Shown one piece after another: positions 1-13,192 of a DNA stretch of 64,000 nt (positions are counted from its first letter, which is position 1; every line of letters begins with the position of its first letter). Location of the stretch: the NCBI GenBank assembly GCA_964430885.1, contig CAYSHM010000006.1, positions 86,645 through 150,644 of the forward strand. Reading direction: 5' to 3'. This DNA is from an uncultured archaeon. GTDB taxonomy: Archaea; Thermoplasmatota; Penumbrarchaeia; JASLWR01. The translations under genes and the position numbers were made by a program. Below the pieces are notes generated by a model. It searched no databases. It was not told where the DNA came from and saw only the letters and a list, made by a program, of their open reading frames with translations.

Positions 1-2
1 CA

Positions 3-92
3 GCCAGGGTCGGAGAGCTTGTCTCAGTTCACGTTATTCCCAGGCCCCACGAGGAAGTAGAGGATGTTCTGCCTTCCATTGATAGGGATTAA
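3..92 (+). CDS. BMC hexamer shell protein (PduA/EutM/CcmK family, PF00936), 3' fragment; gene starts upstream of the window
   Basis: Not in the ORF track. Frame starting at base 3 reads ARVGELVSVHVIPRPHEEVEDVLPSIDRD then TAA (90-92). GELVSVHVIPRPH is the conserved C-terminal signature of PduA/EutM-type shell proteins. Confidence 0.88.
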   Translation, partial: ARVGELVSVHVIPRPHEEVEDVLPSIDRD

Positions 93-423
93 AGTAATAC
101 TGCATTAAATTGTTATTTGCAGGGATGGGCTGAAATATTCGCCTGCTCCCTTAGAGAACAGGATTTGCATTTGGAGATTTATCCTCAAAATAATAATGAT
201 ATTCTTTTAGGAAGATCATCTGAATGTTTTATCCTGCAATTTACTCAATAGGATTAAATCGAATTGATATCTATGGTGATCATGAAAGCAAAGGCCATAT
301 GTCAATTACTTCCAGATTGAAATGCGGGTAGTATTGTTACCTTTGATATCAAGATCCGGGATATGGAATGTATGGCCTAAACACCACGAAAAAATTCAAG
401 AATAGTGATAATGAAGTGATACA

Positions 424-1863
424 ATGGAAAGGGAGGAAGCGATCAAAAGGATAACCGAAGAGGTTCTTGCAAGAATTAGGGGCGCATCTTCGGGTAATTC
501 TTTGAATACCTCACAGGGATCTGCCGCGGATCAATCCGAAAAGGGACGGAGTGCACCTTATTTAGCCTCTGGGGGAAAATCCATTATTATGATACTCAGC
601 GGAGACCGGACTATTGAGGATCTGAGAGAGGACATCAGTTCCATATGCAGTAGCCAGAAGGTTGAAATGATAGTGGTATCCGATTGGGCTCTTAGGTCCT
701 TCAACATCTTTAAACTCAAGGGTTTAGCTCCTGGGATAAAACTGCTCCAGGAGGGGGACATATTGGGCAGCAAGACAATATCAGACATCTTATCAGACGT
801 TGACTCGGTCTATGTTCTCGACCTGGATATTCCCAGTGCTTCGCGTATTGCAGATTTTGCTCCAGTGCTGCCTGCTGAAAGGGTTATCACAGGGGCAATT
901 ATTTCCGGTAAAAGCGTTATCTGTTCACATGCACTTCTGAGCCCAATGGCAGGGGAGCTAACTCCTCCATGCGCCCGTGAGGCCATTTCCGCAGTTGAGA
1001 AGAAGCTCGTGGCCGTCGGTGTTGCCATGCTTGGTTCGGGGACTTCTTTCAGTGATAATGAAGCAGTGGAACAGGCCCTAGCCCGCTGCCCGGCGGGTGA
1101 AGGAGAATGTATTGGATGCGGATTGTGCGTGAACCTGAACACAGCAGGCGTGGAGAACATCTTTTCAGCCGGAGCCCAGAGGATTAGTACGGCTACCGGA
1201 TTGGATACCCCCAATCCAGATATGGCTCGTATGATAGATCACACGCTGCTGAAACCCGCTGCCACAGAGGATGATATCCGGGAGCTATGTGATGAGGCTA
1301 GAAGATACAATTTCGCTACGGTATGTGTTAATCCATCCCATGTAGCCCTTGCAGCAAGGGAGCTGAGAGGAACGGATGTTGGTATCACCACTGTCATCGG
1401 TTTCCCCCTGGGAGCAACAACCCATACCGCAAAGTCCATTGAGACCCGGGATGCAATAGCCAATGGCGCCAATGAGATAGATATGGTGGTTAACGTTGGC
1501 GCTCTGAAGGCTGGCAACGATGATCTGGTAAAAAGGGATATTGCGTCAGTGGTGAACGCTGCAGGCAATGATGCTATTGTCAAGGTGATTCTTGAGACCT
1601 CTCTGCTGAATGACGAGGAGAAGGTCAGGGGCTGCCTGCTCTCAAAGATGGCCGGGGCGGATTATGTGAAGACATCCACTGGTTTTGGTCCTGGCGGCGC
1701 TACCGTAGAGGATATCCGCTTAATGAGGCAGACTGTGGGCCCAGATATGGGGGTTAAGGCCTCTGGAGGGATCAGAAATACAGACGATGCCAATGCCATG
1801 CTTGAAGCAGGTGCTTCAAGGATAGGTGCTAGTGCTTCAGTTGCCATTGTTAAGGGCGCATGA
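424..1863 (+). CDS. deoC: Deoxyribose-phosphate aldolase with N-terminal encapsulation-peptide-like helix, flavoprotein-like domain and Cys cluster
   Basis: C-terminal ~215 aa carry DERA motifs [34 protein letters not shown] (Schiff-base Lys), KASGGIR and GASRIGAS. The ~265-aa extension begins [20 protein letters not shown] and contains [14 protein letters not shown]. Confidence 0.9.
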
Positions 1864-1976
1864 GCCAAGGATCTCTTAAATATCCATTCCAGGTATACTA
1901 ACTACCAAATGGAAGTCGCCTAGTTGCATGAAACTAGTGCAAGCTGTAGTAAATAATGCATGAAGGGATTGGATAA

Positions 1977-3836
1977 ATGAATGAAAAAGACCTCCAAAGG
2001 GACGATGGTCCCGCTACAGGGAATACCATGGAAAATGAAGAGGAGTTTTCATACACTTCCGGTGAAATAACCGGCAAATCTCCCATGGAGCAAACTCTGG
2101 ATCAAGGTCTTCAATTTCTCGAATACCTCCAAAAGCGGAAGGAAACATACAGGGCGGTCAAACTATATTTTCATAATGACATGGACGGTTTTGCTTCCTC
2201 ACTTCTTGTGAACCATCTCCTGACAAAGATCGGTTATGAAATTCCTCTGGAGAACATACACCCCTTGGCTCATGTCAACCTGAATAATGTGGCAATAGAT
2301 GAACAGCATCTATTTTTCTTTGTAGATATACGGCCCCCTAGCTCAGCTTTCAAAGAATCAAGTCTGGCGGGAGAGGATAGACCTTTCATGGAAAATGTTT
2401 TCTGTGTGGATCATCACACAACCCTGGATTCACCCCTTTCACCCCATGCGAATTTCTTTCTTTACAACTATGAGATCGATGATATTCTTCCATCCACTGC
2501 CACCTTCCTGATGTATTATCTTGTAATGCTTGAGAAAGGGATCAGGGGAACCTACGGTGCCCTCATGAGGGAATGGATGACGAACCCCCCCATGAACACA
2601 AGATATCTTCTGCTACAGGCCACCATTGCTGATCATCTTCATCTTCTGTCGGAAAAGCTACCCAATAATCCCCTGAGGTATCTATCCAACCTGCTTATTG
2701 AGGATATGGATGCCTATGTGCTCCTATCAATAACCACCTCACTGCTGCTGGGAGGGGACGGCGGACATATGGATATGTTCAGGCAACTATATTCCGAAGC
2801 CCTGGGGAATATCAATCAGGAATTAATGGCCCAGAAATTAGAGAACAATCTTTCTCAGGTACTTTCGCTTTTTGAATTCGTGGATATTCTCATGAAGAAG
2901 CGTAAGGAATTCATCGATGATATGGCCAAGGATATGGATGGGGAGATCCAGAGAACAGAAGCTGGGATCAGCGGAATGACGGATACCCTGAATAACTATA
3001 ACACCGCAGCCGATAAGATCAAGGAGGAACTCTCATTCCAGAATATAGCTATGGGGAAACTGAAGGATCTTCGAAATGATTACATGGGTATCAGGGAGCA
3101 GATGACGCGTTTAGAGAACCAGATAGGTATTGAGTTGGGAAGGCTTGAAAAACAGAAAGTTCTCAGATACCATCTTGTGGCTGAAGGAGACATCAATTTA
3201 TCAGTTTTCCTGCCACCCCAGAACAATGATCAGGTTAGAGGCATACTGTCATCACTTCTATTTTATCACGGTAATAACAACATCATCATAGAGGAGAAGA
3301 CATCCAAGGCCGTGTGGAGTTCAAGGGGTTATGAGGGAAAGGAATTGGAAAGCTTCCTGACAACAGTATCGGTGGACATGGAGAAATTGATGGAACTGAA
3401 GGAACATCAGGAGGCGGTGGAGGAATTTAAGGGAGATCCAACCATAATTGAGAAGCTTGAATTGGATGAGAGGTCCCCTCCTTTGATATCTGTGGAGAAC
3501 CGATATATCGGACAGATGGGTGGCAGGAGTAGGATATTCGGCGGTATCATTACCAGCAATGTCACCCTTGATGCTAGCACTTTGGTTCAAGACAGAGGAG
3601 GTAATGAACTACAGTCCATACTTACGGTTCCTCACCAGCGGTTCTGGATATCAACTATACAAGCAATAAAGGAAAAATTCAAGGAGAGCCAGTGGTTCAC
3701 AGTACAGGTGGAAGGGGGTGCAAGCTTGGGCGAGATACTCTCAGACCAGTGGGAGCTGCTGCTGATGCATTTCATGGGCAATAGGATGTCATACAGGATT
3801 TTTGAACTGAAAAGCAATGGTCAAGATGGCATCTGA
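1977..3836 (+). CDS. DHH-family phosphoesterase-like protein with coiled-coil insertion
   Basis: DHH motifs FHNDMDG, FVD, VDHH and TIAD; heptad-rich central ~90 aa; degenerate DHHA1-like GG..GG (MGGRSRIFGG). Confidence 0.6.
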   Translation: MNEKDLQRDDGPATGNTMENEEEFSYTSGEITGKSPMEQTLDQGLQFLEYLQKRKETYRAVKLYFHNDMDGFASSLLVNHLLTKIGYEIPLENIHPLAHVNLNNVAIDEQHLFFFVDIRPPSSAFKESSLAGEDRPFMENVFCVDHHTTLDSPLSPHANFFLYNYEIDDILPSTATFLMYYLVMLEKGIRGTYGALMREWMTNPPMNTRYLLLQATIADHLHLLSEKLPNNPLRYLSNLLIEDMDAYVLLSITTSLLLGGDGGHMDMFRQLYSEALGNINQELMAQKLENNLSQVLSLFEFVDILMKKRKEFIDDMAKDMDGEIQRTEAGISGMTDTLNNYNTAADKIKEELSFQNIAMGKLKDLRNDYMGIREQMTRLENQIGIELGRLEKQKVLRYHLVAEGDINLSVFLPPQNNDQVRGILSSLLFYHGNNNIIIEEKTSKAVWSSRGYEGKELESFLTTVSVDMEKLMELKEHQEAVEEFKGDPTIIEKLELDERSPPLISVENRYIGQMGGRSRIFGGIITSNVTLDASTLVQDRGGNELQSILTVPHQRFWISTIQAIKEKFKESQWFTVQVEGGASLGEILSDQWELLLMHFMGNRMSYRIFELKSNGQDGI

Positions 3837-4097
3837 TTTTCTGCACCTGAAATATGATCACTTCACTTCGATAGCCTATCATCCAATGATATATTCCAAT
3901 GAAAAATTTTAAAAATGATACACCTTTTCCACTTACAGAACCGAATAGGAGTTTTTTCGGGGATAATATGAACTAAAAAATGTTATACTTGGTGTAACAT
4001 AAACATGGATTCATAGTGTATTGGTTTGATCAATCAAAGTGCTAAGGGGATTGAATTGATCTTGGTGATCTCCCGAGGAGATACAAGAGGTGGATAG

Positions 4098-4985
4098 ATG
4101 AACATTGAGAACAAGTTATGGTTTGGAATCATAGTAGGTGCAGTTGTTTTGCTGATAGTTTCAGTTATTCTTTATGCTACATTCAAAGAGGAAAACGTTG
4201 AGGAAGGAAAGACCTCCATTCCTGTAATTCTAGAGGGTTATGAGATAGAGTACAAATATACGGTCCGAATCGGCGGACCTAACGGACCGGTATATGATTC
4301 CAATATGGACAATATCATAAACTCATCTCTGGTTGAGAAAACGGTTTTCTATAATAACTATGCTCAATGGCCGGAACGTTTCATAGTTGGTGAGCACCCG
4401 GCCGATGCGGAATTACCTTCCTTCAGCGATCATTTCATTGGACATGAGGAAGGGGACCATTTCAATTTCGTTCTTTCGGGGGTGAGCCGTCTAGAATATA
4501 ACGACAGTAAAAGGGTGGAAATACCTGTGAAGGAGAAGATACCTCTCTATGAGACAGTGAACAAAGAGCAGTTCAAATCATCGTTAGGAGCTGTGGATTT
4601 GAAGGTTGGTATGATATATAATCATGGTTTTTGGGGATGGGAAATTGAGATTTTTGAATTTATCGACGAGAATAATATGACAATTTATCACAGACCTGAG
4701 ATAGGTTACGAAATAGATGTTCTTCCCTGGTCTTCCGAAGTGAAGGATGTATCATCTGAAACGGGTTTCATAACTCTGAATCATGATCTGACAGATAAAG
4801 ATCTTCTAAAGGGCCAGTTCTACCCCTTTGAATACACGGATTATTCTGACCATTTTGATAATATGAACAATCCGGGTTACATCCAACAGCTTGGTCCGAA
4901 TTATATAGTGATCGAGTTCAATGATGAACGCGCAGGTGCGGATATTTATTTTGATATAGAGATAGTGAGGATTCTGAATTCCTGA
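4098..4985 (+). CDS. Membrane-anchored FKBP/SlyD-type peptidyl-prolyl isomerase with large insertion
   Basis: N-terminal TM (LWFGIIVGAVVLLIVSVILY); FKBP elements Y...G.VYDSN, IGHEEGD and IEFNDERAGADIYFDIEIVRI (cf. DFNHPLAGKTL.F.V.V); GAGGTGG RBS. Confidence 0.7.
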   Translation: MNIENKLWFGIIVGAVVLLIVSVILYATFKEENVEEGKTSIPVILEGYEIEYKYTVRIGGPNGPVYDSNMDNIINSSLVEKTVFYNNYAQWPERFIVGEHPADAELPSFSDHFIGHEEGDHFNFVLSGVSRLEYNDSKRVEIPVKEKIPLYETVNKEQFKSSLGAVDLKVGMIYNHGFWGWEIEIFEFIDENNMTIYHRPEIGYEIDVLPWSSEVKDVSSETGFITLNHDLTDKDLLKGQFYPFEYTDYSDHFDNMNNPGYIQQLGPNYIVIEFNDERAGADIYFDIEIVRILNS

Positions 4986-4997
4986 TGAGGTGATGTA

Positions 4998-5924
4998 ATG
5001 GCAAGGAAAAGAAGCGTGGACGGATCAAAAAGAGGAAAACACGGCGGAGACGCATCCATGTTCGATGATATCGATGAGTACAGTATAAGGGAAGAGGTGA
5101 GGGGTTCGGTCATGAAGGAGTCATCCCGCAGAAAAGCCTTAATGCCTTATGTGGTTCTGGTACTTGTAATATTAGCAATAATAGGAGGGTATTTTGCCTA
5201 CATGTATCTTATAAAGGAAGACAAGGATACACCTGCTTCTGATTTCAATGAGGATAATTCCTTCATTGCAGATGTGGAGATAAAGGTAGAGACCAAGACC
5301 GATGGTGATGGAAGCCACAGCCCTTTTGATTACAGTATGCACAAGGTTGATCCTTCTAGGGGAACCCAATACCTGCTTTTGATCAAGAACAAGGGTGAAG
5401 AAAAGGATTCTTTCCGATTGACTGCGGACAATCCCAGCGGTTGGTCAGTCACCTTCGAAGGTGGTAATGTCATGACGGACATGTCCCCGGGGTACTGGGA
5501 TTACAAGATAATGACCATAAAGGTGACTGATTCAAGTGATTCCTATAGGGACATAAAGATTACAGCTACTTCATTATCAGACCCGTTAGTAAAGGACAGT
5601 ATTATCACCAAGAACACAGTGGAATCTCTTCCTCCTGGCGAAGCAGATCTGAACAATGATCCGGCTAAGGTAGATTACAATTTGGTATATTACGGCGGAG
5701 GAACTTCCGGGGAGAAGGGCTGGTATCATAATCAGGGTAGCGAGTTCGAGGCCACAAATGTTATTCAGGGGTTCAAGGAGGCCATCAAGGGAATGAGAGT
5801 AGGCCAGACCAAAGTAATAGAGGTTCCACCTGAAAAGGGATATGGTCCGGATGATGAGAAGCATGTTGGCGGCCGTCCCCTGGTCTTCGAGATCACAATG
5901 CTGGATGTCAACACCAATAATTAG
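4998..5924 (+). CDS. Membrane-anchored Ig-like domain plus FKBP-type peptidyl-prolyl isomerase
   Basis: Single TM near aa 50-72; Ig-like segment (IKNKGEEKDSFRLT..PSGWSVTF); C-terminal FKBP VIQGFKEAIKGMRVGQTKVIEVPPEKGYG..GRPLVFEITML; GAGGTGA RBS. Confidence 0.8.
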   Translation: MARKRSVDGSKRGKHGGDASMFDDIDEYSIREEVRGSVMKESSRRKALMPYVVLVLVILAIIGGYFAYMYLIKEDKDTPASDFNEDNSFIADVEIKVETKTDGDGSHSPFDYSMHKVDPSRGTQYLLLIKNKGEEKDSFRLTADNPSGWSVTFEGGNVMTDMSPGYWDYKIMTIKVTDSSDSYRDIKITATSLSDPLVKDSIITKNTVESLPPGEADLNNDPAKVDYNLVYYGGGTSGEKGWYHNQGSEFEATNVIQGFKEAIKGMRVGQTKVIEVPPEKGYGPDDEKHVGGRPLVFEITMLDVNTNN

Positions 5925-6167
5925 AACGATCAAGTTCGACCAGCTAAGTGCCGACCCACAAAGCAAAAACTCAATCATCCCTCGTTTGGAAACAATGGGT
6001 TTGATTTGTAAGTTAATTATTAATAGGAGTTTGAGGAATAAGGGTCGGAAATGGAATCCTTTGGCATTTGGGTATAATAGTGTATATTGAATGACATGGG
6101 AACTCCGATTTAATCAATAACTATAGTTCACACTGATGAATATTAATGGATAAGGAGAGGTGTAAGG

Positions 6168-6446
6168 ATGAAGTTGCCAAGAAGGATAAAAACGTACTGT
6201 CCGTTCTGCAAGGTCCACACGGAGCATAAGGTGGAAAATGTGAAGAAGAAGAAGGCTTCTGAGCTGAAATGGGGACAGAGACGTTTCAGAAAGGTAATGA
6301 GAGGGTACAGGGGATTTCCCAGACCCAAACCCGAAGGCAGGGAAAAACCAACCAAAAGAATATATCTACGAAAAAGGTGCACCCAGTGCAATAAAGCTCA
6401 TCAGAGCAAATGTTTCAGATCAGGGAAATTTGCGTTCAAGGATTGA
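6168..6446 (+). CDS. rpl44e: 50S ribosomal protein L44e
   Basis: [42 protein letters not shown] and RCTQC zinc ribbon; archaeal operon context. Confidence 0.97.
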
Positions 6447-6451
6447 TAATT

Positions 6452-6667
6452 ATGCATATACAAAAACAGACCAAGTATTTGGATACACCTAACAGCAAAT
6501 ACTTAAAGGTGAAATGTCACGACTGCATGAACGAGCAGGTAATATTCAACAAGGCCAGTAATGTTGTGAAATGTTTGGTTTGCGGGGCTACTTTAGCAGA
6601 ACCCACCGGCGGAATGGCCAAGGTAAAGAGTAAGATATTGGCCGTTGTTGACAGAAAGTACAGATGA
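6452..6667 (+). CDS. rps27e: 30S ribosomal protein S27e
   Basis: [20 protein letters not shown]...[19 protein letters not shown] at 6452 is preferred over the track start 6410, which overlaps rpl44e. Confidence 0.96.
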
Positions 6668-6681
6668 AGGTAGAGATTTAT

Positions 6682-7455
6682 ATGGCAAACCGATTCGAAT
6701 GGCCTTTGGAAGATGAACTGGTTGTATGTACCGTAAAAAGGGTTCTTGATTATGGTGCTTTTGTTACCCTGGATGAATATCAGGATAAAGAAGGCTTCAT
6801 CCATATTGCTGAGATCGCTTCCGGTTGGGTCAAATATATCGGCAACCATATTAGAGAAAAGGCCAAGGTTGTTACCAAGGTCCTTCGTGTGGATCCTCGA
6901 AGGGAGCATATAGATCTCTCCTTGAAGAGGGTCAATGACCACCAGAAGAGGGCAAAGATACAGGAGTGGAGAAGAAATACCAAGATGCTGAAGCTCTTCG
7001 AACTTCTCTCAAAAAGAATAGAGAAAGAGCTGAAATTGTGTTATAGAGAGTTTGGTTTCTCACTGATGGAGAAATACGGCTCCCTTTATAACTCCTTTGA
7101 AGCGGTATCTATCAATAACAATGTCCTTGAAGAGGACGGTTTCCAGGGAGACTGGGTGGAGCATTTTGTTGATATTGCACGGACCAATATAACTCCCCCC
7201 TATGTATCCATTTCAGAGAAAATATACCTATTCTCTCCTGCTCCCAATGGAGTGGAACATGTTAAGGAAGCTATAGGTTCGGTGATCAAAAATTCCGAGG
7301 AAAACGTCAAGATCACCTATGTAGGGGCGCCGGAATACCGGATCTCCGTCATCGCCCGCGATTATAAAAATGCGGAATCAGTAATGGCTAATACTGCAGG
7401 AGATGTTATTGATAAGATAACATCAACGGGCGGTTATGGTTCATTCGATAGATAA
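6682..7455 (+). CDS. eif2a: Translation initiation factor 2 subunit alpha (aIF2alpha)
   Basis: S1 domain WPLEDELVVCTV..YGAFVTLDEY..EGFIHIAEIASGWVKYI, HIDLSLKRV and YVGAPEYRI. Alternative start at 6664. Confidence 0.96.
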   Translation: MANRFEWPLEDELVVCTVKRVLDYGAFVTLDEYQDKEGFIHIAEIASGWVKYIGNHIREKAKVVTKVLRVDPRREHIDLSLKRVNDHQKRAKIQEWRRNTKMLKLFELLSKRIEKELKLCYREFGFSLMEKYGSLYNSFEAVSINNNVLEEDGFQGDWVEHFVDIARTNITPPYVSISEKIYLFSPAPNGVEHVKEAIGSVIKNSEENVKITYVGAPEYRISVIARDYKNAESVMANTAGDVIDKITSTGGYGSFDR

Positions 7456-7481
7456 ATAATTTTTTCAAGAGGGCATGGATC

Positions 7482-7661
7482 ATGAAGCATTTTTTATTCA
7501 AGTGTTCAGAATGTTCAGTCTATACTATGGACCAACAATGCCCAGAATGCGGTAATACAGCTTGGGCTGTGGAACCCCCTCGTTTTTCACCACAGGACCG
7601 TTGGGGGAAATACCGCAGAAAGTTATTACTTAACTTGGAGAATGATGAGAATGATGGATAG
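7482..7661 (+). CDS. nop10: H/ACA RNP protein Nop10
   Basis: 59-aa ORF below the track cut-off: MKHFLFKCSECSVYTMDQQCPECGNTAWAVEPPRFSPQDRWGKYRRKLL. It sits in the canonical position between aIF2alpha and PAC2. Confidence 0.93.
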   Translation: MKHFLFKCSECSVYTMDQQCPECGNTAWAVEPPRFSPQDRWGKYRRKLLLNLENDENDG

Positions 7662-8418
7662 TGTGATCTTCCAAAAGGAAAATGTTCCCGATTGCCAGAA
7701 TGCGGTATTGATAGAGGGATTACCGGGAATAGGACGGGTAGGTCAGATAGCAGCAGATTATTTGGTGGAAAAATTGAATTCGGAAAAATTTATCACAATT
7801 TATTCACCCTTCTTTCCTCCTCAGGTTATGGTTGATGATGAGGGTCTGGTTCATCCCATGATTCAGGAAATGCATCACTGCATCACTAAATCAGGACGTC
7901 ATTTACTGTTCTTAACCGGAGACTATCAGGGTTTGACTGGCGAAGCCCAGTATGCTCTCAGTCATGAAGTATTGAAACTCGCAAGCTCCATGGATGTGAA
8001 AGAGATCATAACTCTAGGTGGTTACGGTGTTAGAAAGATACTTGAAGAACCCAGGGTACTCGGTGCTGCCACTTCAAATGAAATTGTCTCCAAAATGGAG
8101 GAATTTCAGGTTGTGTTCAAAAGCGAACACCCCACGGGCGGTATTGTAGGAGCATCCGGTATATTGCTTGGATTGGCTCCGCTGTTTGATCTTGAAGGGG
8201 TTTGCCTAATGGGTGAGACCCATGGTGCCTATCCAGATCATATTGCTGCAAAGATGATATTGAAGGTGCTGGATGCATATCTGGATCTGGATCTTGTTTA
8301 TGATGATCTGGATGAACCCTCTCCCGCCCTGGAGGCCCTGAAGGCCCAGATAAAGGAAATGGATCAGGAAGCAGAAAAAGGTTACAAGGAAGAACAAGAA
8401 CTGAACTATTTTGTATGA
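7642..8418 (+). CDS. Proteasome assembly chaperone PAC2 family protein
   Basis: LIEGLPGIGRVGQIAADYL, GDYQ, IITLGGY, GGIVGASGILLG, CLMGET and D..AAK; conserved operon position after nop10. The start may be 7651 or 7654. Confidence 0.9.
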   Translation: MMRMMDSVIFQKENVPDCQNAVLIEGLPGIGRVGQIAADYLVEKLNSEKFITIYSPFFPPQVMVDDEGLVHPMIQEMHHCITKSGRHLLFLTGDYQGLTGEAQYALSHEVLKLASSMDVKEIITLGGYGVRKILEEPRVLGAATSNEIVSKMEEFQVVFKSEHPTGGIVGASGILLGLAPLFDLEGVCLMGETHGAYPDHIAAKMILKVLDAYLDLDLVYDDLDEPSPALEALKAQIKEMDQEAEKGYKEEQELNYFV

Positions 8419-8584: not shown

Positions 8585-11500
8585 ATGGGAGTTCATCATA
8601 TGGCCGCAACTTTTTCAGGTAAGAAAGGTATCTATTCAGTTATTTTAATAATTATTATTATTTTATGTGGTTACTCAGGTTTTATCCCATTGGTGTTGAG
8701 GAATGAAGACCAATTTATATGTTCCTTATTGCCGTCCGATCCAAATTCTGAGGACAATGATGAGATTATAGATGGCAATATTGATAATGATATAATTACA
8801 AGAGGGAAAGGTTGGTTCTACCAAATGATCGACTTTCGGGACGAATCGGGTTTGGGGCAATCACCTTCTGCCAGATTTGACTCCATAGGGAATCTTCATG
8901 TAGGGTACGAGGATAGAGAAGCGGACCGCTTGAAATATACTTACTGGAACGGAAACCAATGGGATATCCAAGTAATTGCCGGTTCAGATCCGGGGGATCC
9001 CATTGATACGGAAGGGCGTCCTTATATGGTGCTTGATGATATTGATAGTCCCCATTTTGCCTATATTGATGATGATGAACACCTCAAGCACACTTACTGG
9101 GACAACGACCATTGGGCCCATGAAATTGTGGATGGCATTTCCCAGTGCAAGGGTTATACTCCTCTGGTAATAGATGGGAACGGCAGTATTCATGTGACGT
9201 ATTATGATTCTATTATTACTGCCTTGAAGTATGCCTATTTCGATGGTAATTTCTGGAATGCCACCGTTGTGGATTCATTCGGAGACGTGGGTGAGTATTG
9301 TTCAATAGCCGTGGATTCGGAGAACAATCCCCATATTAGCTATTTTAATGATTCGGCGGACGATCTTAAATATGCAACCTTTAACGGAATGTCCTGGAGC
9401 AACCAAACAGTTGATTCCACGGGTTTTGTAGGCCAATACACATCTATAGCAATCGGGACTGATCAGCACCCTAGGATCAGTTACAGAGACGTGACCAACC
9501 GATTTCTGAAATTTGCGTTCTTCTTCAACGGGAACTGGACCATCGAATCCGCAGATTCAACACCCCAGGATGTTGGAAAGGACTGCAGTCTTTTTCTGGA
9601 TTCATCGGATAATCCTCATATTTCATATTTTGATGATTCCTGGAATGACCTGAGGTATGTTCATCATGACGGTGAGCAGTGGAACATGGGGATAATAGAT
9701 TCCGATTCAACAGCTGGAGACTACACCTGTATTGCTCTAAATGGGACTGACAGTCCTCACATTTTTTATCATAGGGAAAATGACGGCGAGCATACCTTGG
9801 AATATGCAAATCTGATAGAGGAGTACAGCAACCCTTTCCTAATTTCAGATGAGACTGCCGAGTATGGTACTACAGGTGAAAAGCTCCAGTTCAATATAAG
9901 CGCGGGCGATAATTTTGCAGTTAAGAATGTTAAGGTGAATTGGGAACACAACGGAACCAGCGAGAACCTTTCCCTTGTTGAGGGTAATTCATTTTGGATT
10001 GGAGAGGCCGAAATAGAGCACGATTTGGCTACTCTAAACTATACTATCTACATAGAGGATTACTGTCAGAACCATTACAATAGCCATCAGTTCAGAGTAA
10101 ATATCAGTGATGATGACCTTCCGGTGATTATTGGTGATTCAAGTCCGAATTTCGGAACTACTGGTGATATTTTTAGATTTAATATAACTGCCTATGATAA
10201 TATTGGACTGGATACTATAAAAGTCAACTGGACCCATGGGAATCTGGCTGGAAATACTACATTGACCGAATCCATAGATGGCTATTGGAATTCCAGTATA
10301 ATACTTGATCATAACCTTAGCGATATGAACTATACTATCTTCATAAATGATACATCAAACAACAGCATAACAGTGCCGGGGGTACCAGTGAATATTTCAG
10401 ATGATGATCTTCCGGTTCTCATAGAAGACATGTCCCCTCTATCAGGAACAACAGGTGATGATTTCCTTATACAATTGTCACTGGATGATAATATAGGTGT
10501 TGAAGGTGCATTCGTGAACTGGAGTCACGGCGGTTTAGATGATAATATCTCCTTGGTGCTGCAAAGGGGTCGATGGACCAGGACAATACAGCTGGACCAT
10601 AACCTTTCTGATTTGCAGTACTATGTATTCTTCAATGATACCTCTGGTAACAGCAATGCAACCCCGGTTCTCAATATAGAAGTTCACGACAATGACCTTC
10701 CCTATCTGGATGACATAAGCCCTGACAATGGCACCACAGGGGATCCGTTCGAGTTCAGAATCACTACTGGAGACAATATAGATGTCGGAAGTGTTAATAT
10801 ATCCTGGGAACATGGGAATCTGAGCGGTAATGCTCCTCTTGCTGAGGAAGGCCCCAACCTTTGGATGGGCACCATCTTTCTCGACCATTCCATTGAACAT
10901 CTATCCTATTATGTGCAGGTAAATGATACCGCAGGCAACAGTGTCAATCATCAGGGGCCAATGGTCCATGTAATGGATAACGATGATCCTTTTATTCAGA
11001 ATGATAATTCCAGCGGCACAGGATCCACCGGTGATAATTACACGTTTTTGATACAGCCTTTGGATGATGTTTGGGTCAGCAGTGTGCTTGTCGACTGGAA
11101 TCACGGTGAGGCCGATGGCAGGCTAGAACTGATCAAGAACAATACTGGATTCTGGGAGGGCATTGTTTCTCTAGTTGATGATATTGGTGATCTGGAATAT
11201 ACAGTACAGATAAACGATAGTTCGGGAAATTATCACATTAGTTCCAAGCGTTTCATTATGATATTGGATAATGATATTCCTATGATTAGGGAGAACAACT
11301 GTCCGAATTTCGGGACCACTGGCGATGAATATATTTTCAGTATGGAACCATGGGATAATATCGAGGTTGATAGTGTCAATGTGAGTTTTAATCATGGTCC
11401 GATGGATGAAAACATTGAGCTAGAAAAAGGACTTGGTGATTCCTGGTCTGCTAAGATTTACATGGCTCATTCTCTATCGAATCTCGAATATTCCTTTCAG

Positions 11501-13192
11501 GTAAATGATACTTCAGGTAATTTTTATCGAAATGAATTGACAAATGTCCAAGTATTCGATAACGATGACCCCCAATTCATATCCAATCTTACCCTTGGGA
11601 CCTCAACAACCGGGGGAAATATCATATTCAAAATCAATGCCAAGGACAATATTGGGATACAGAGCGTGAAAGTGCAGTACAGTTATGGTGAGCCCTGGGC
11701 CGAATTCACCTACTTGATTCCATATGTAGGCAATTTCACCTATGAAAAGACCATTGTGACATATGATACCATTGATCCCCTGTTTTACCGATTCATTATT
11801 GAAGATAGCAATGGTAACTCTTTCACCACTGATTATTCACCCATACTGATATCGGATAATGACGATCCGGTTATTATACATGATGATACCCCCCGGCGGG
11901 TATCTCTGCTGGAATTCCTGAATTTCCAAGTCAATACGGTAGATAATGTGGGGCTGGACAATGTCAAGGTGTATTTTGGATACGGAGTAAATGTAAACCT
12001 TACAATTCTGGAACTGACTTCAAACGAGCAGATGGAAGAAAATTATACCGGTATTCTAGTCCTGGACATCAATGCAACAGCTGATCTTCTATATTTTATC
12101 CGGGCAGTTGATACAAGCGGCAACCAAGCAACTACAAAAATGAAAATGATCAATATATCTGAACTCCATGAGGATTTTGACGGCGATGGAATAATAGATT
12201 TTAGGGATGAAGATGATGACAACGATACCATCCCGGATGACTGGGAGATCAATTTCGGTCTTAACCCTTACAACCGATCTGACAGTTCAAATGACATGGA
12301 AGGAGACGGACTTATGAACCTCTATGAATACCAGAATGGTTTGAATCCGACCTCCAACGATACAGATAATGACGGAATGCCTGACGGTTGGGAGGTCATA
12401 AACAATTTGGATCCCTTGAAGAACGATGCGAATCTCGATCCAGATCGGGATAATCTGCCGAATACTGACGAATACCGAATTGGAAGTGATCCCCGAAATC
12501 ATGATTCAGACGGTGATTACTGGACAGATGGTGATGAGGTTACAAGAGGCTCTGATCCCCTTGATATCAATTCTTTCCCTTCGGATCCGGGAGATGATGG
12601 AATACTCTTTAATCTGTTTGGAATTGGTATAGATATAAAGGATATATTGGGTATTACCGCGTCCCTGCTTTCCTTCCTTCTAGCATATCTACTGTTAACC
12701 AGAAGAAGACGAAAGTATCAGCATTATGTTTTGAAAATTGCCGAGATCAATGATCTTGATAAGCTGGTTGAATATTATCGGGTGGAAATATTAACTGCCA
12801 TCAAGAATGAGCAGATCACACCTCATCATGCAGTAATAATCAAAGAGGATTATACCAAACGCAGGGAAGAATTACAGGATATGGATAATTCCGGGGACGG
12901 ATCGAGAGAGGAAATCGCACATTCTTCAATTTCAAAAGAAGATGATGAACAGGATTCCGAAAGTGATGAAGCAGGTTTTTCAGCCCCAGTCCTTGACGAA
13001 GATCAACACCCGGAACAGAATGACCATGATGTCGATGAAATTCTAACCGATTCAGAAAAATCAGCCGATGATTTTGAGACCAGTCCTGATGATGATGAAG
13101 ATGATGTTGATTTTGAGATCGATACTTCCTTTGATGAAGACGACAATGTAATAACTCCGGCTGATCTTTTTGAGGATAACTTCGATATGTAG
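8585..13192 (+). CDS. Large membrane-anchored surface protein: 7-blade beta-propeller, 8 Ig-like repeats, DxDxDG Ca-binding repeats, TM, acidic tail
   Basis: N-terminal hydrophobic segment; seven repeats of W...VD..G.VG.Y.SIA.D...PHISY...LKYA; eight ~97-aa GTTGD..DNIG repeats; D.DGDG.PD.WE motifs; TM followed by RRRRK. Confidence 0.75.
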   Translation: MGVHHMAATFSGKKGIYSVILIIIIILCGYSGFIPLVLRNEDQFICSLLPSDPNSEDNDEIIDGNIDNDIITRGKGWFYQMIDFRDESGLGQSPSARFDSIGNLHVGYEDREADRLKYTYWNGNQWDIQVIAGSDPGDPIDTEGRPYMVLDDIDSPHFAYIDDDEHLKHTYWDNDHWAHEIVDGISQCKGYTPLVIDGNGSIHVTYYDSIITALKYAYFDGNFWNATVVDSFGDVGEYCSIAVDSENNPHISYFNDSADDLKYATFNGMSWSNQTVDSTGFVGQYTSIAIGTDQHPRISYRDVTNRFLKFAFFFNGNWTIESADSTPQDVGKDCSLFLDSSDNPHISYFDDSWNDLRYVHHDGEQWNMGIIDSDSTAGDYTCIALNGTDSPHIFYHRENDGEHTLEYANLIEEYSNPFLISDETAEYGTTGEKLQFNISAGDNFAVKNVKVNWEHNGTSENLSLVEGNSFWIGEAEIEHDLATLNYTIYIEDYCQNHYNSHQFRVNISDDDLPVIIGDSSPNFGTTGDIFRFNITAYDNIGLDTIKVNWTHGNLAGNTTLTESIDGYWNSSIILDHNLSDMNYTIFINDTSNNSITVPGVPVNISDDDLPVLIEDMSPLSGTTGDDFLIQLSLDDNIGVEGAFVNWSHGGLDDNISLVLQRGRWTRTIQLDHNLSDLQYYVFFNDTSGNSNATPVLNIEVHDNDLPYLDDISPDNGTTGDPFEFRITTGDNIDVGSVNISWEHGNLSGNAPLAEEGPNLWMGTIFLDHSIEHLSYYVQVNDTAGNSVNHQGPMVHVMDNDDPFIQNDNSSGTGSTGDNYTFLIQPLDDVWVSSVLVDWNHGEADGRLELIKNNTGFWEGIVSLVDDIGDLEYTVQINDSSGNYHISSKRFIMILDNDIPMIRENNCPNFGTTGDEYIFSMEPWDNIEVDSVNVSFNHGPMDENIELEKGLGDSWSAKIYMAHSLSNLEYSFQVNDTSGNFYRNELTNVQVFDNDDPQFISNLTLGTSTTGGNIIFKINAKDNIGIQSVKVQYSYGEPWAEFTYLIPYVGNFTYEKTIVTYDTIDPLFYRFIIEDSNGNSFTTDYSPILISDNDDPVIIHDDTPRRVSLLEFLNFQVNTVDNVGLDNVKVYFGYGVNVNLTILELTSNEQMEENYTGILVLDINATADLLYFIRAVDTSGNQATTKMKMINISELHEDFDGDGIIDFRDEDDDNDTIPDDWEINFGLNPYNRSDSSNDMEGDGLMNLYEYQNGLNPTSNDTDNDGMPDGWEVINNLDPLKNDANLDPDRDNLPNTDEYRIGSDPRNHDSDGDYWTDGDEVTRGSDPLDINSFPSDPGDDGILFNLFGIGIDIKDILGITASLLSFLLAYLLLTRRRRKYQHYVLKIAEINDLDKLVEYYRVEILTAIKNEQITPHHAVIIKEDYTKRREELQDMDNSGDGSREEIAHSSISKEDDEQDSESDEAGFSAPVLDEDQHPEQNDHDVDEILTDSEKSADDFETSPDDDEDDVDFEIDTSFDEDDNVITPADLFEDNFDM

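Follow-up and report, generated by a model that had tools for sequence, protein, structure and literature searches.

The stretch of DNA considered here, the window, is 64,000 nucleotides long and is the final 64 kb of contig C6 (150,644 nt) in the archaeal genome analysed, G000 (window = G000:C6:86645-150644). Its first letters fall inside an operon for a protein-shelled microcompartment of the sugar-phosphate-utilisation (SPU) type, a class of bacterial microcompartment (BMC) with seven bacterial subtypes (Sutter et al. 2021, PMC8217296). The G000 assembly is of metagenome type, with 44 contigs, 91.6% completeness and 1.4% estimated contamination; contig C6 has zero N. The main comparison genomes are G001 and G002 (two other genera of the same family), G003 (same order, 88% complete) and G005 (another family of the same class). 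Genes were named by Pfam and NCBIfam profiles, scored in bits against model cut-offs.

The operon has 12 genes, extends over ~10 kb (G000:C6:78594-88507) and ends within the window. The 8 kb upstream of the window are a tight row of same-strand genes, with gaps of -23 to 331 nt. The gene order, with H, P and T denoting hexamer, pentamer and trimer shell proteins, is:

Gene 1, 209 aa: CcmP-like double-stacking trimer (Tdp); CcmP is the best-scoring model, at 256 bits, below its equivalog cut-off of 340
Gene 2, 263 aa: flavoprotein-like DUF; no Pfam match; resembles bacterial flavoprotein/PDU_like clusters in a protein-atlas search
Gene 3, 97 aa: BMC-P (PF03319)
Gene 4, 476 aa: PduP/EutE-type aldehyde dehydrogenase (AldDH; Aldedh); PRK15398 655 bits, cut-off 403
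Gene 5, 453 aa: RnfC/PduS-like flavin/Fe-S NADH dehydrogenase (MNdh); Complex1_51K (Nuo51 FMN domain), SLBB, two 4Fe-4S motifs and a C-terminal RnfC_N
Gene 6, 185 aa: PduT-like tandem trimer (Ts) with a CPGK motif; two PF00936 domains; PduT 145 bits, below the equivalog cut-off of 250
Gene 7, G000:C6:83835-84350, 171 aa: BMC-P with a basic tail (P2; PF03319)
Gene 8, 304 aa: bacterial-type TPI with a 55-residue N-terminal extension (PF00121)
Gene 9, 161 aa: RpiB (PF02502; LacAB_rpiB 182 bits)
Gene 10, 100 aa: BMC-P (PF03319)
Gene 11, G000:C6:86443-86736, 97 aa: BMC-H (PF00936, 93.1 bits over 1-75/75); its last 30 codons and stop are window 1..95 (+), the gene start being 202 nt before the window
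Gene 12, window 424-1863 (+), 479 aa: Flav-DERA; deoC TIGR00126 287 bits, cut-off 117

Window positions 3-92 translate to ARVGELVSVHVIPRPHEEVEDVLPSIDRD, followed by a stop. An earlier reading of the window by itself (the original prediction) had taken this short frame for the C-terminus of a BMC shell protein and, continued upstream, the frame does complete the PF00936 domain of gene 11, whose product is also matched by NCBIfam CsoS1/EutM-like models at 119 and 117 bits. The three PF03319 pentamer genes score 96, 52 and 66 bits, and the tandem BMC-T 147 bits. The matches to PF00936, PF03319, Aldedh/PRK15398, Complex1_51K, RnfC_N, 4Fe-4S, TIM, LacAB_rpiB and deoC all exceed the cut-offs of their models. 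BMC-H (PF00936) and BMC-P (PF03319) genes stand together in one locus, as in an SPU main locus in the sense of PMC8217296, and the two SPU signature enzymes, a DeoC-type aldolase and RpiB, are both present, with an acylating aldehyde dehydrogenase beside them. The expectations that most of the locus would lie upstream of the window, and that it would specify an SPU-type organelle in an archaeon, hold good: a hexamer, two trimer types, three pentamers, AldDH, RpiB and DERA are encoded in an archaeal chromosome. An upstream search had been proposed for several named BMC genes, and of these PF00936, PF03319, aldehyde dehydrogenase and RpiB are there; for PduL the 91.6%-complete genome gave no match.

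The last gene of the operon had been described as a DeoC with N-terminal additions, and that is what it encodes. Residues 267-476 match deoC, and the ~260 residues at the N-terminal end form an extension kept in homologues. There are four parts: an amphipathic helix (~1-20), a linker, a flavoprotein-like domain with cysteines after it, and the aldolase. Across an alignment of 16 Flav-DERA proteins C222, C229, C232, C235 and the DERA motifs are invariant, while the N-terminal helix, the flavoprotein-like domain and the DERA core are also kept, the core including D353, K387 and K416, which lie in the motifs of the catalytic Asp/Lys/Lys known from E. coli DERA. The architecture is widespread at 43-62% identity. 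The N-terminal helix is a putative encapsulation peptide. Similar N-terminal amphipathic helices, then linkers, occur in AldDH, TPI and the DUF protein, and these too may be encapsulation peptides, giving four putatively targeted cargo proteins.

A ribosome binding site, GAAGTGA, lies at window 412-418, 5 nt before the Flav-DERA ATG, and GGAGG/AGGTGA-like sites precede most genes of the operon and its neighbourhood; the 3′ end of the G000 16S gene carries GGATCACCTCC. The likeness of the site to those of neighbouring genes, to which the original prediction had pointed, is thus present, but such sites are shared by bacteria and archaea and so are uninformative on origin; that argument was dropped. 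Eight short contigs from two metatranscriptome runs match the region at 0-1 differences, three of them within Flav-DERA. They are only a hint of expression, and stretches without RNA-contig cover in these runs (X3 and X4) are uninformative.

Behind the operon the window continues on the same strand with the following genes (window coordinates).

1977..3836 (+): RecJ-like DHH/DHHA1 protein, 619 aa; weak DHH and RecJ_archaeal matches
4098..4985 (+): 295-aa protein of no Pfam family; at the same place in G002, 40% identity
4998..5924 (+): 308-aa protein ending in an FKBP-type peptidyl-prolyl isomerase domain (PF00254 44 bits); at the same place in G001 and G002, 56-59% identity
6168..6446 (+): ribosomal protein L44e (PF00935 88.5 bits); 83% identical at the same place in G002
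6410..6667 (+): ribosomal protein S27e (PF01667 82.5 bits); the listed open reading frame (ORF) start is probably too far upstream
6664..7455 (+): aIF2 alpha (PF07541 96 bits; S1 36 bits)
7482..7661 (+): Nop10 (PF04135 69.6 bits)
7642..8418 (+): PAC2-family proteasome assembly chaperone (PF09754 156 bits)

Pfam confirms L44e, S27e, aIF2 alpha and Nop10, all on the plus strand, as had been predicted. Two other genes of the contig are recorded in passing. At window 8585-13192 is the gene for a 1535-aa secreted or anchored protein with many Asp-rich calcium-binding repeats of TSP3-like type and, at its C-terminus, a transmembrane segment. Upstream of the window, on the minus strand (G000:C6:59520-60620), is that for a 366-aa tRNA-guanine transglycosylase, which scores 417 bits on the queuine-type TIGR00430 (cut-off 307) and 161 bits on the archaeosine-type model (cut-off 350), a bacterial-type match that is odd for an archaeon.

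The junction between the operon and these genes could be an artefact of assembly or binning, with a bacterial BMC operon joined to archaeal DNA in a chimeric contig. An assembly of metagenome type in 44 contigs with some estimated contamination would be open to this, the closest named relatives of the operon are bacterial, and the G+C content of the operon is 44.5-47.7% as against 43.2% for the contig. However, the order operon, RecJ-like gene, FKBP, L44e, aIF2alpha recurs in G001:C119 and G002:C50 at identities of 34-84%, so that the junction together with five to six downstream archaeal genes is kept in two other genera (L44e was not detected as an ORF in G001, where PAC2 is also kept). The operon is intact in G000, G001 and G002, and there are shell genes in 4/4 genomes of the order. 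Archaeal genes lie on both sides of the operon in a contig free of N. Logan contigs assembled from single runs, one from each of two runs (34,885 and 51,925 nt), carry window 1-8418 across the junction in one piece with 0 differences. The tetranucleotide distance of the operon to the genome mean is 0.0121; among 282 ten-kb windows this ranks at the 70th percentile (median 0.0101; 95th percentile 0.0177), which is ordinary for the genome. Given the conserved junction in relatives, the flanking archaeal genes, the single-run contigs and the ordinary composition, it is very unlikely that the contig is chimeric, and an artefact is an explanation to which we give almost no weight. The continuity of 1863-6168, on which the original prediction depended, and the recurrence of the same linkage in other genomes are both borne out.

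The host is most probably a member of the Thermoplasmatota, as had been guessed. On the archaeal small-subunit (SSU) model the 16S gene of G000 reaches 1504 bits, and an archaeal-type RqcH gene (539 bits) lies ~22 kb upstream of the operon on C6. The actin family has no match in G000, a point against an Asgard host. One homologue of the RecJ-like gene, 35% identical, is labelled ‘Candidatus Thermoplasmatota archaeon’ at NCBI; the name of the phylum is taken from this one label and from the agreement of the locus with a preprint's description, given below. The proteasome gives a weak, mixed comparison: the beta subunit has its best PDB match in 1pma_B, which we take to be from Thermoplasma acidophilum, and the alpha subunit is closer to other archaeal entries.

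Within the phylum the distribution of shell genes is narrow. PF00936 is present in 4/4 species genomes of the order and in 5/41 relatives, the fifth being G005; PF03319 occurs in 5/401 genomes, an even sample of the whole phylum covering 162 genera, and these are the same five genomes. Only a satellite cluster of shell genes, described below, was found in G003. The G005 shell genes are on contigs of 6,854 and 1,881 nt, too short to verify anything archaeal, and G005 was dropped as a candidate second archaeal lineage.

The relatives of the operon point to bacteria. Its TPI is of bacterial type (TIGR00419 175 bits versus 37 bits for the archaeal-type model). A scan of named genomes with Flav-DERA matched 600 stretches, 598 of which were confirmed; among the best 80 of these, which are mainly plain bacterial DERA and include no archaeal record, only two reach the N-terminal half of the protein, a Polyangia (Myxococcota) metagenome-assembled genome at 45% identity and Candidatus Ozemobacter at 40%. 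The Polyangia contig has collinear MNdh, P, TPI and Flav-DERA genes at 41-43% identity. A FastTree phylogeny was built from 142 rows, none omitted: 82 derived from tblastn, P0002-P0060 and the protein of the window. In it the sequences of the archaeal order fall into a single clade of 14 rows (SH-like support 96), nested in the fusion-protein group, of which the Polyangia sequence is the only named member. This tree agrees with a published one, discussed next, and is no independent proof. The operon would have entered this small archaeal order from bacteria by old horizontal transfer and would since have been inherited beside the ribosomal-protein cluster.

Such archaeal loci have already been reported. 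A bioRxiv preprint of 18 November 2025 (10.1101/2025.11.08.687404; PMC12747264) describes archaeal microcompartments in 66/111 Hodarchaeales genomes, also detected in the Thermoplasmatota order JASLWR01 and the DPANN lineage SpSt-1190, and interprets them as SPU metabolosomes acquired from Myxococcota. With a Hodarchaeales homologue, shell assembly was obtained in vitro as well as in E. coli, and a P2 tail rich in K/R was found to bind DNA; the pathway considered below, like shell assembly, was proposed and partly tested for Hodarchaeales homologues. The novelty that the original prediction had attached to an archaeal BMC is therefore largely gone: the archaeal SPU operon is real, was correctly read and is biologically notable, and it is already described in that preprint. 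The 2021 BMC catalogue (PMC8217296) has 0 occurrences of ‘archaea’, and a literature search found no other paper linking microcompartments with Thermoplasmatota/JASLWR01 or Marine Benthic Group D.

For JASLWR01 the preprint gives an extra Tdp gene, the loss of an H copy and a lack of PTAC, and this is what G000 displays: its CcmP-like Tdp scores 256 bits, the operon has only one BMC-H, and no PTAC could be found. The likeness extends to the SPU operon itself, three BMC-P genes, Myxococcota as nearest bacterial relatives and one BMC-H in G001 as well. G002 differs in keeping a second BMC-H (G002:C50:9659-9886, between Ts and P2), so that not every member of the order has lost an H copy. With Hodarchaeales types I and II, as described in the same text, the operon shares the Flav-DERA fusion, AldDH, MNdh and CPGK Ts, RpiB, three pentamers and, as in type II, TPI; a K-rich P2 tail is also present in G000. 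In contrast, Hodarchaeales have two or three H genes, lack a Tdp, and have PTAC, either alone or together with citrate synthase, whereas G000 combines one H and a Tdp with no PTAC found; lacking an actin match too, it does not fit the Hodarchaeales (Asgard) type. Bacterial SPU BMCs (PMC8217296) and the Myxococcota loci are alike in their DeoC-type aldolase (PF01791), RpiB (PF02502), AldDH, BMC-P triplet and CcmP-like Tdp; here the host is archaeal, and neither PTAC nor acetate kinase was found in G000. The main text of the preprint makes no mention of a RecJ-like gene or a satellite shell trio. Both go beyond it, as do the pattern of the K-rich P2 tail and the combination of no PTAC or acetate kinase with ACD-like genes being present.

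From the gene content a route can be proposed. Deoxyribose-5-phosphate from breakdown of DNA or nucleosides would enter the shell, and DERA would cleave it, giving glyceraldehyde-3-phosphate together with acetaldehyde. The trapped acetaldehyde would be turned into acetyl-CoA by AldDH, with NADH formed, and the RnfC/PduS-like NADH dehydrogenase would pass electrons out via the Fe-S trimer (Ts). PTAC/PduL (PF06130), which belongs to the general metabolosome core, has no match anywhere in the 91.6%-complete G000, nor was acetate kinase found there; acetyl-CoA therefore probably leaves the shell, and CoA would re-enter, perhaps, by conjecture, through the gated Tdp trimer. A cytosolic ADP-forming acetyl-CoA synthetase (ACD) would then convert acetyl-CoA to acetate and ATP, and G000 has two fused ACD-like genes (C2:133648-134976 and C17:54835-56175), scoring 515 and 365 bits.

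The compartment could be real and yet have another main role: it might handle other sugar phosphates, such as ribose-5-phosphate by way of RpiB and triose phosphates by way of TPI, or act chiefly as a sink for acetaldehyde or for redox equivalents. RpiB and TPI are inside the operon, the latter with a targeting-like N-terminal helix, and a DeoB-type phosphopentomutase was not found in G000. DERA, however, is the signature enzyme that is conserved, and the residues of its catalytic motifs do not vary; the operon pairs it with an acylating acetaldehyde dehydrogenase. These enzymes define the SPU type, which is tied to DNA-degradation products (PMC8217296). A different main substrate is judged improbable. 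That a complete SPU-type microcompartment operon, of bacterial origin by old transfer and later inherited, stands in an archaeal chromosome and serves a deoxyribose-5-phosphate route is, by comparison of genes and gene order, highly probable.

Several points weigh against this account. Substrate and flux are read from gene content, and the shell is known here from its genes. Without DeoB (G000 has four PNP_UDP_1 phosphorylases) no enzyme can be assigned to the conversion of deoxyribose-1-phosphate into the 5-phosphate, and the route of substrate supply is incomplete. Recycling of CoA in a shell without PTAC lacks an explanation, its export as acetyl-CoA through a pore being the conjecture just given, and both ACD-like genes are below the equivalog cut-off of 567 bits. 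The phylogeny is by FastTree only, with weak support of 82-93 on the branches joining the archaeal clade to the Polyangia group. The two DNA runs behind the Logan contigs are possibly source samples, in which case the continuity that they show is independent of the assembler and not of the data. The contigs from the RNA libraries may include carried-over DNA.

The 619-aa RecJ-like gene stands directly after Flav-DERA in G000, G001 and G002 (orthologues of 600-623 aa). A search of 5.8 billion sequences gave 13 homologues of its product, itself included, and by this measure the protein is lineage-restricted. For at least five of the 13, the longest contig matches in length that of a Flav-DERA homologue. 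DHH-type motifs are invariant among them, and there is a ~120-residue coiled-coil insert. Its structural model has a pLDDT of 70.1 and a pTM of 0.66, and with it Foldseek returns 29 matches at E<=0.001; the 28 listed are all RecJ, RecJ-Cdc45 or Cdc45, at TM 0.22-0.30. The likeness to RecJ and RecJ-Cdc45 (GAN) thus lies in the kept motifs and in the composition of that list, and the differences in very low similarity of sequence (30.8 bits on the RecJ profile, cut-off 360) and of TM, in the insert, and in its being extra to a canonical RecJ gene (520 bits) that is elsewhere in G000 together with a second RecJ-like gene (335 bits on the same cut-off). A nuclease role is predicted, and it is reasonable to suppose that the protein may feed the pathway.

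Shell accessories of DNA-binding type are the other lineage-specific feature. The satellite shell trio (G000:C26:44222-46000, minus strand) encodes a BMC-P (91 aa), a 178-aa BMC protein and a 259-aa protein with BMC, linker and winged-helix parts. The trio is convergent with an M24 peptidase gene and is kept in 4/4 genomes of the order (also G001:C73, G002:C53 and G003:C1). A model of the 259-aa protein has the BMC fold at 1-90, a disordered basic linker of ~95 residues (91-185) and a confident winged helix at 190-259, a domain with weak HxlR/DeoR-like matches only. In a profile search of 1.84 billion representatives this protein has 4659 matches at E<=0.001 and only eight at E<=1e-30; six of the eight cover the whole profile, and nearly all the other matches listed are to the BMC domain only. 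A 341-aa paralogue (BMC-HTH; G000:C3:172678-173703, plus strand) has one N-terminal BMC domain and two winged-helix-like segments, with no other shell gene nearby; a protein-atlas search with it gave nothing usable. Directly upstream of the gene for this paralogue, G000:C3:169310-172414 encodes a 1034-aa protein with the same TSP3-like repeat type as the 1535-aa protein of the window and, again, a transmembrane segment at the C-terminus. In G000 the P2 pentamer has a disordered tail of 58 residues, 26 of them K/R, which is absent from the G001, G002 and Polyangia homologues, suggesting an independent gain in G000.

The closest known architecture to the satellite protein is that of EutK, a shell protein of ethanolamine utilisation that joins a BMC domain at the N-terminus to a positively charged, nucleic-acid-binding domain at the C-terminus, and whose loss, according to PMC12487888, strands Eut compartments at the cell poles. 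The archaeal protein differs in its long basic linker and winged helix and in being encoded in a three-gene satellite cluster, not an eut operon; the likeness is one of architecture. On the EutK precedent the K-rich P2 tail and the BMC-winged-helix protein might position or partition compartments on the nucleoid instead of capturing DNA as food. The presence of the satellite trio in G003, where the main operon was not found, would suit such a role, but G003 is only 88% complete and its main operon may be unassembled. The Hodarchaeales P2 tail, moreover, binds both DNA and RNA, which PMC12747264 reads as nutrient capture. Nucleoid positioning is then a tentative possibility, somewhat unlikely though deserving of consideration.

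The RecJ-like gene behind DERA, the winged-helix shell module, the K-rich P2 tail of G000 and the failure to find PTAC could also be taken together, as marks of a distinct Thermoplasmatota variant of the organelle built around DNA, in which the shell would tether DNA, a nuclease would feed DNA in and CoA would cross the shell. Such a variant is doubtful. If true, it would go against the general principle that a metabolosome has a CoA pool of its own.

To our knowledge, protein-shelled metabolic organelles were long regarded as purely bacterial. Their stable inheritance in archaeal chromosomes means that gene transfer can carry an entire self-assembling organelle from one domain to another, a point already made by the Asgard-centred preprint. 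The addition made by the window is modest: an independent check against assembly artefact for the Thermoplasmatota case, a clean 150-kb context and three leads beyond the main text of the preprint, namely the RecJ-like gene next to the operon, the shell module of DNA-binding type, and ACD-like genes in a genome where neither PTAC nor acetate kinase was found. The interest that remains concerns the accessories peculiar to the lineage and the CoA-recycling enzyme that was not found, which bear on how such a compartment may be fed and how it may handle CoA.

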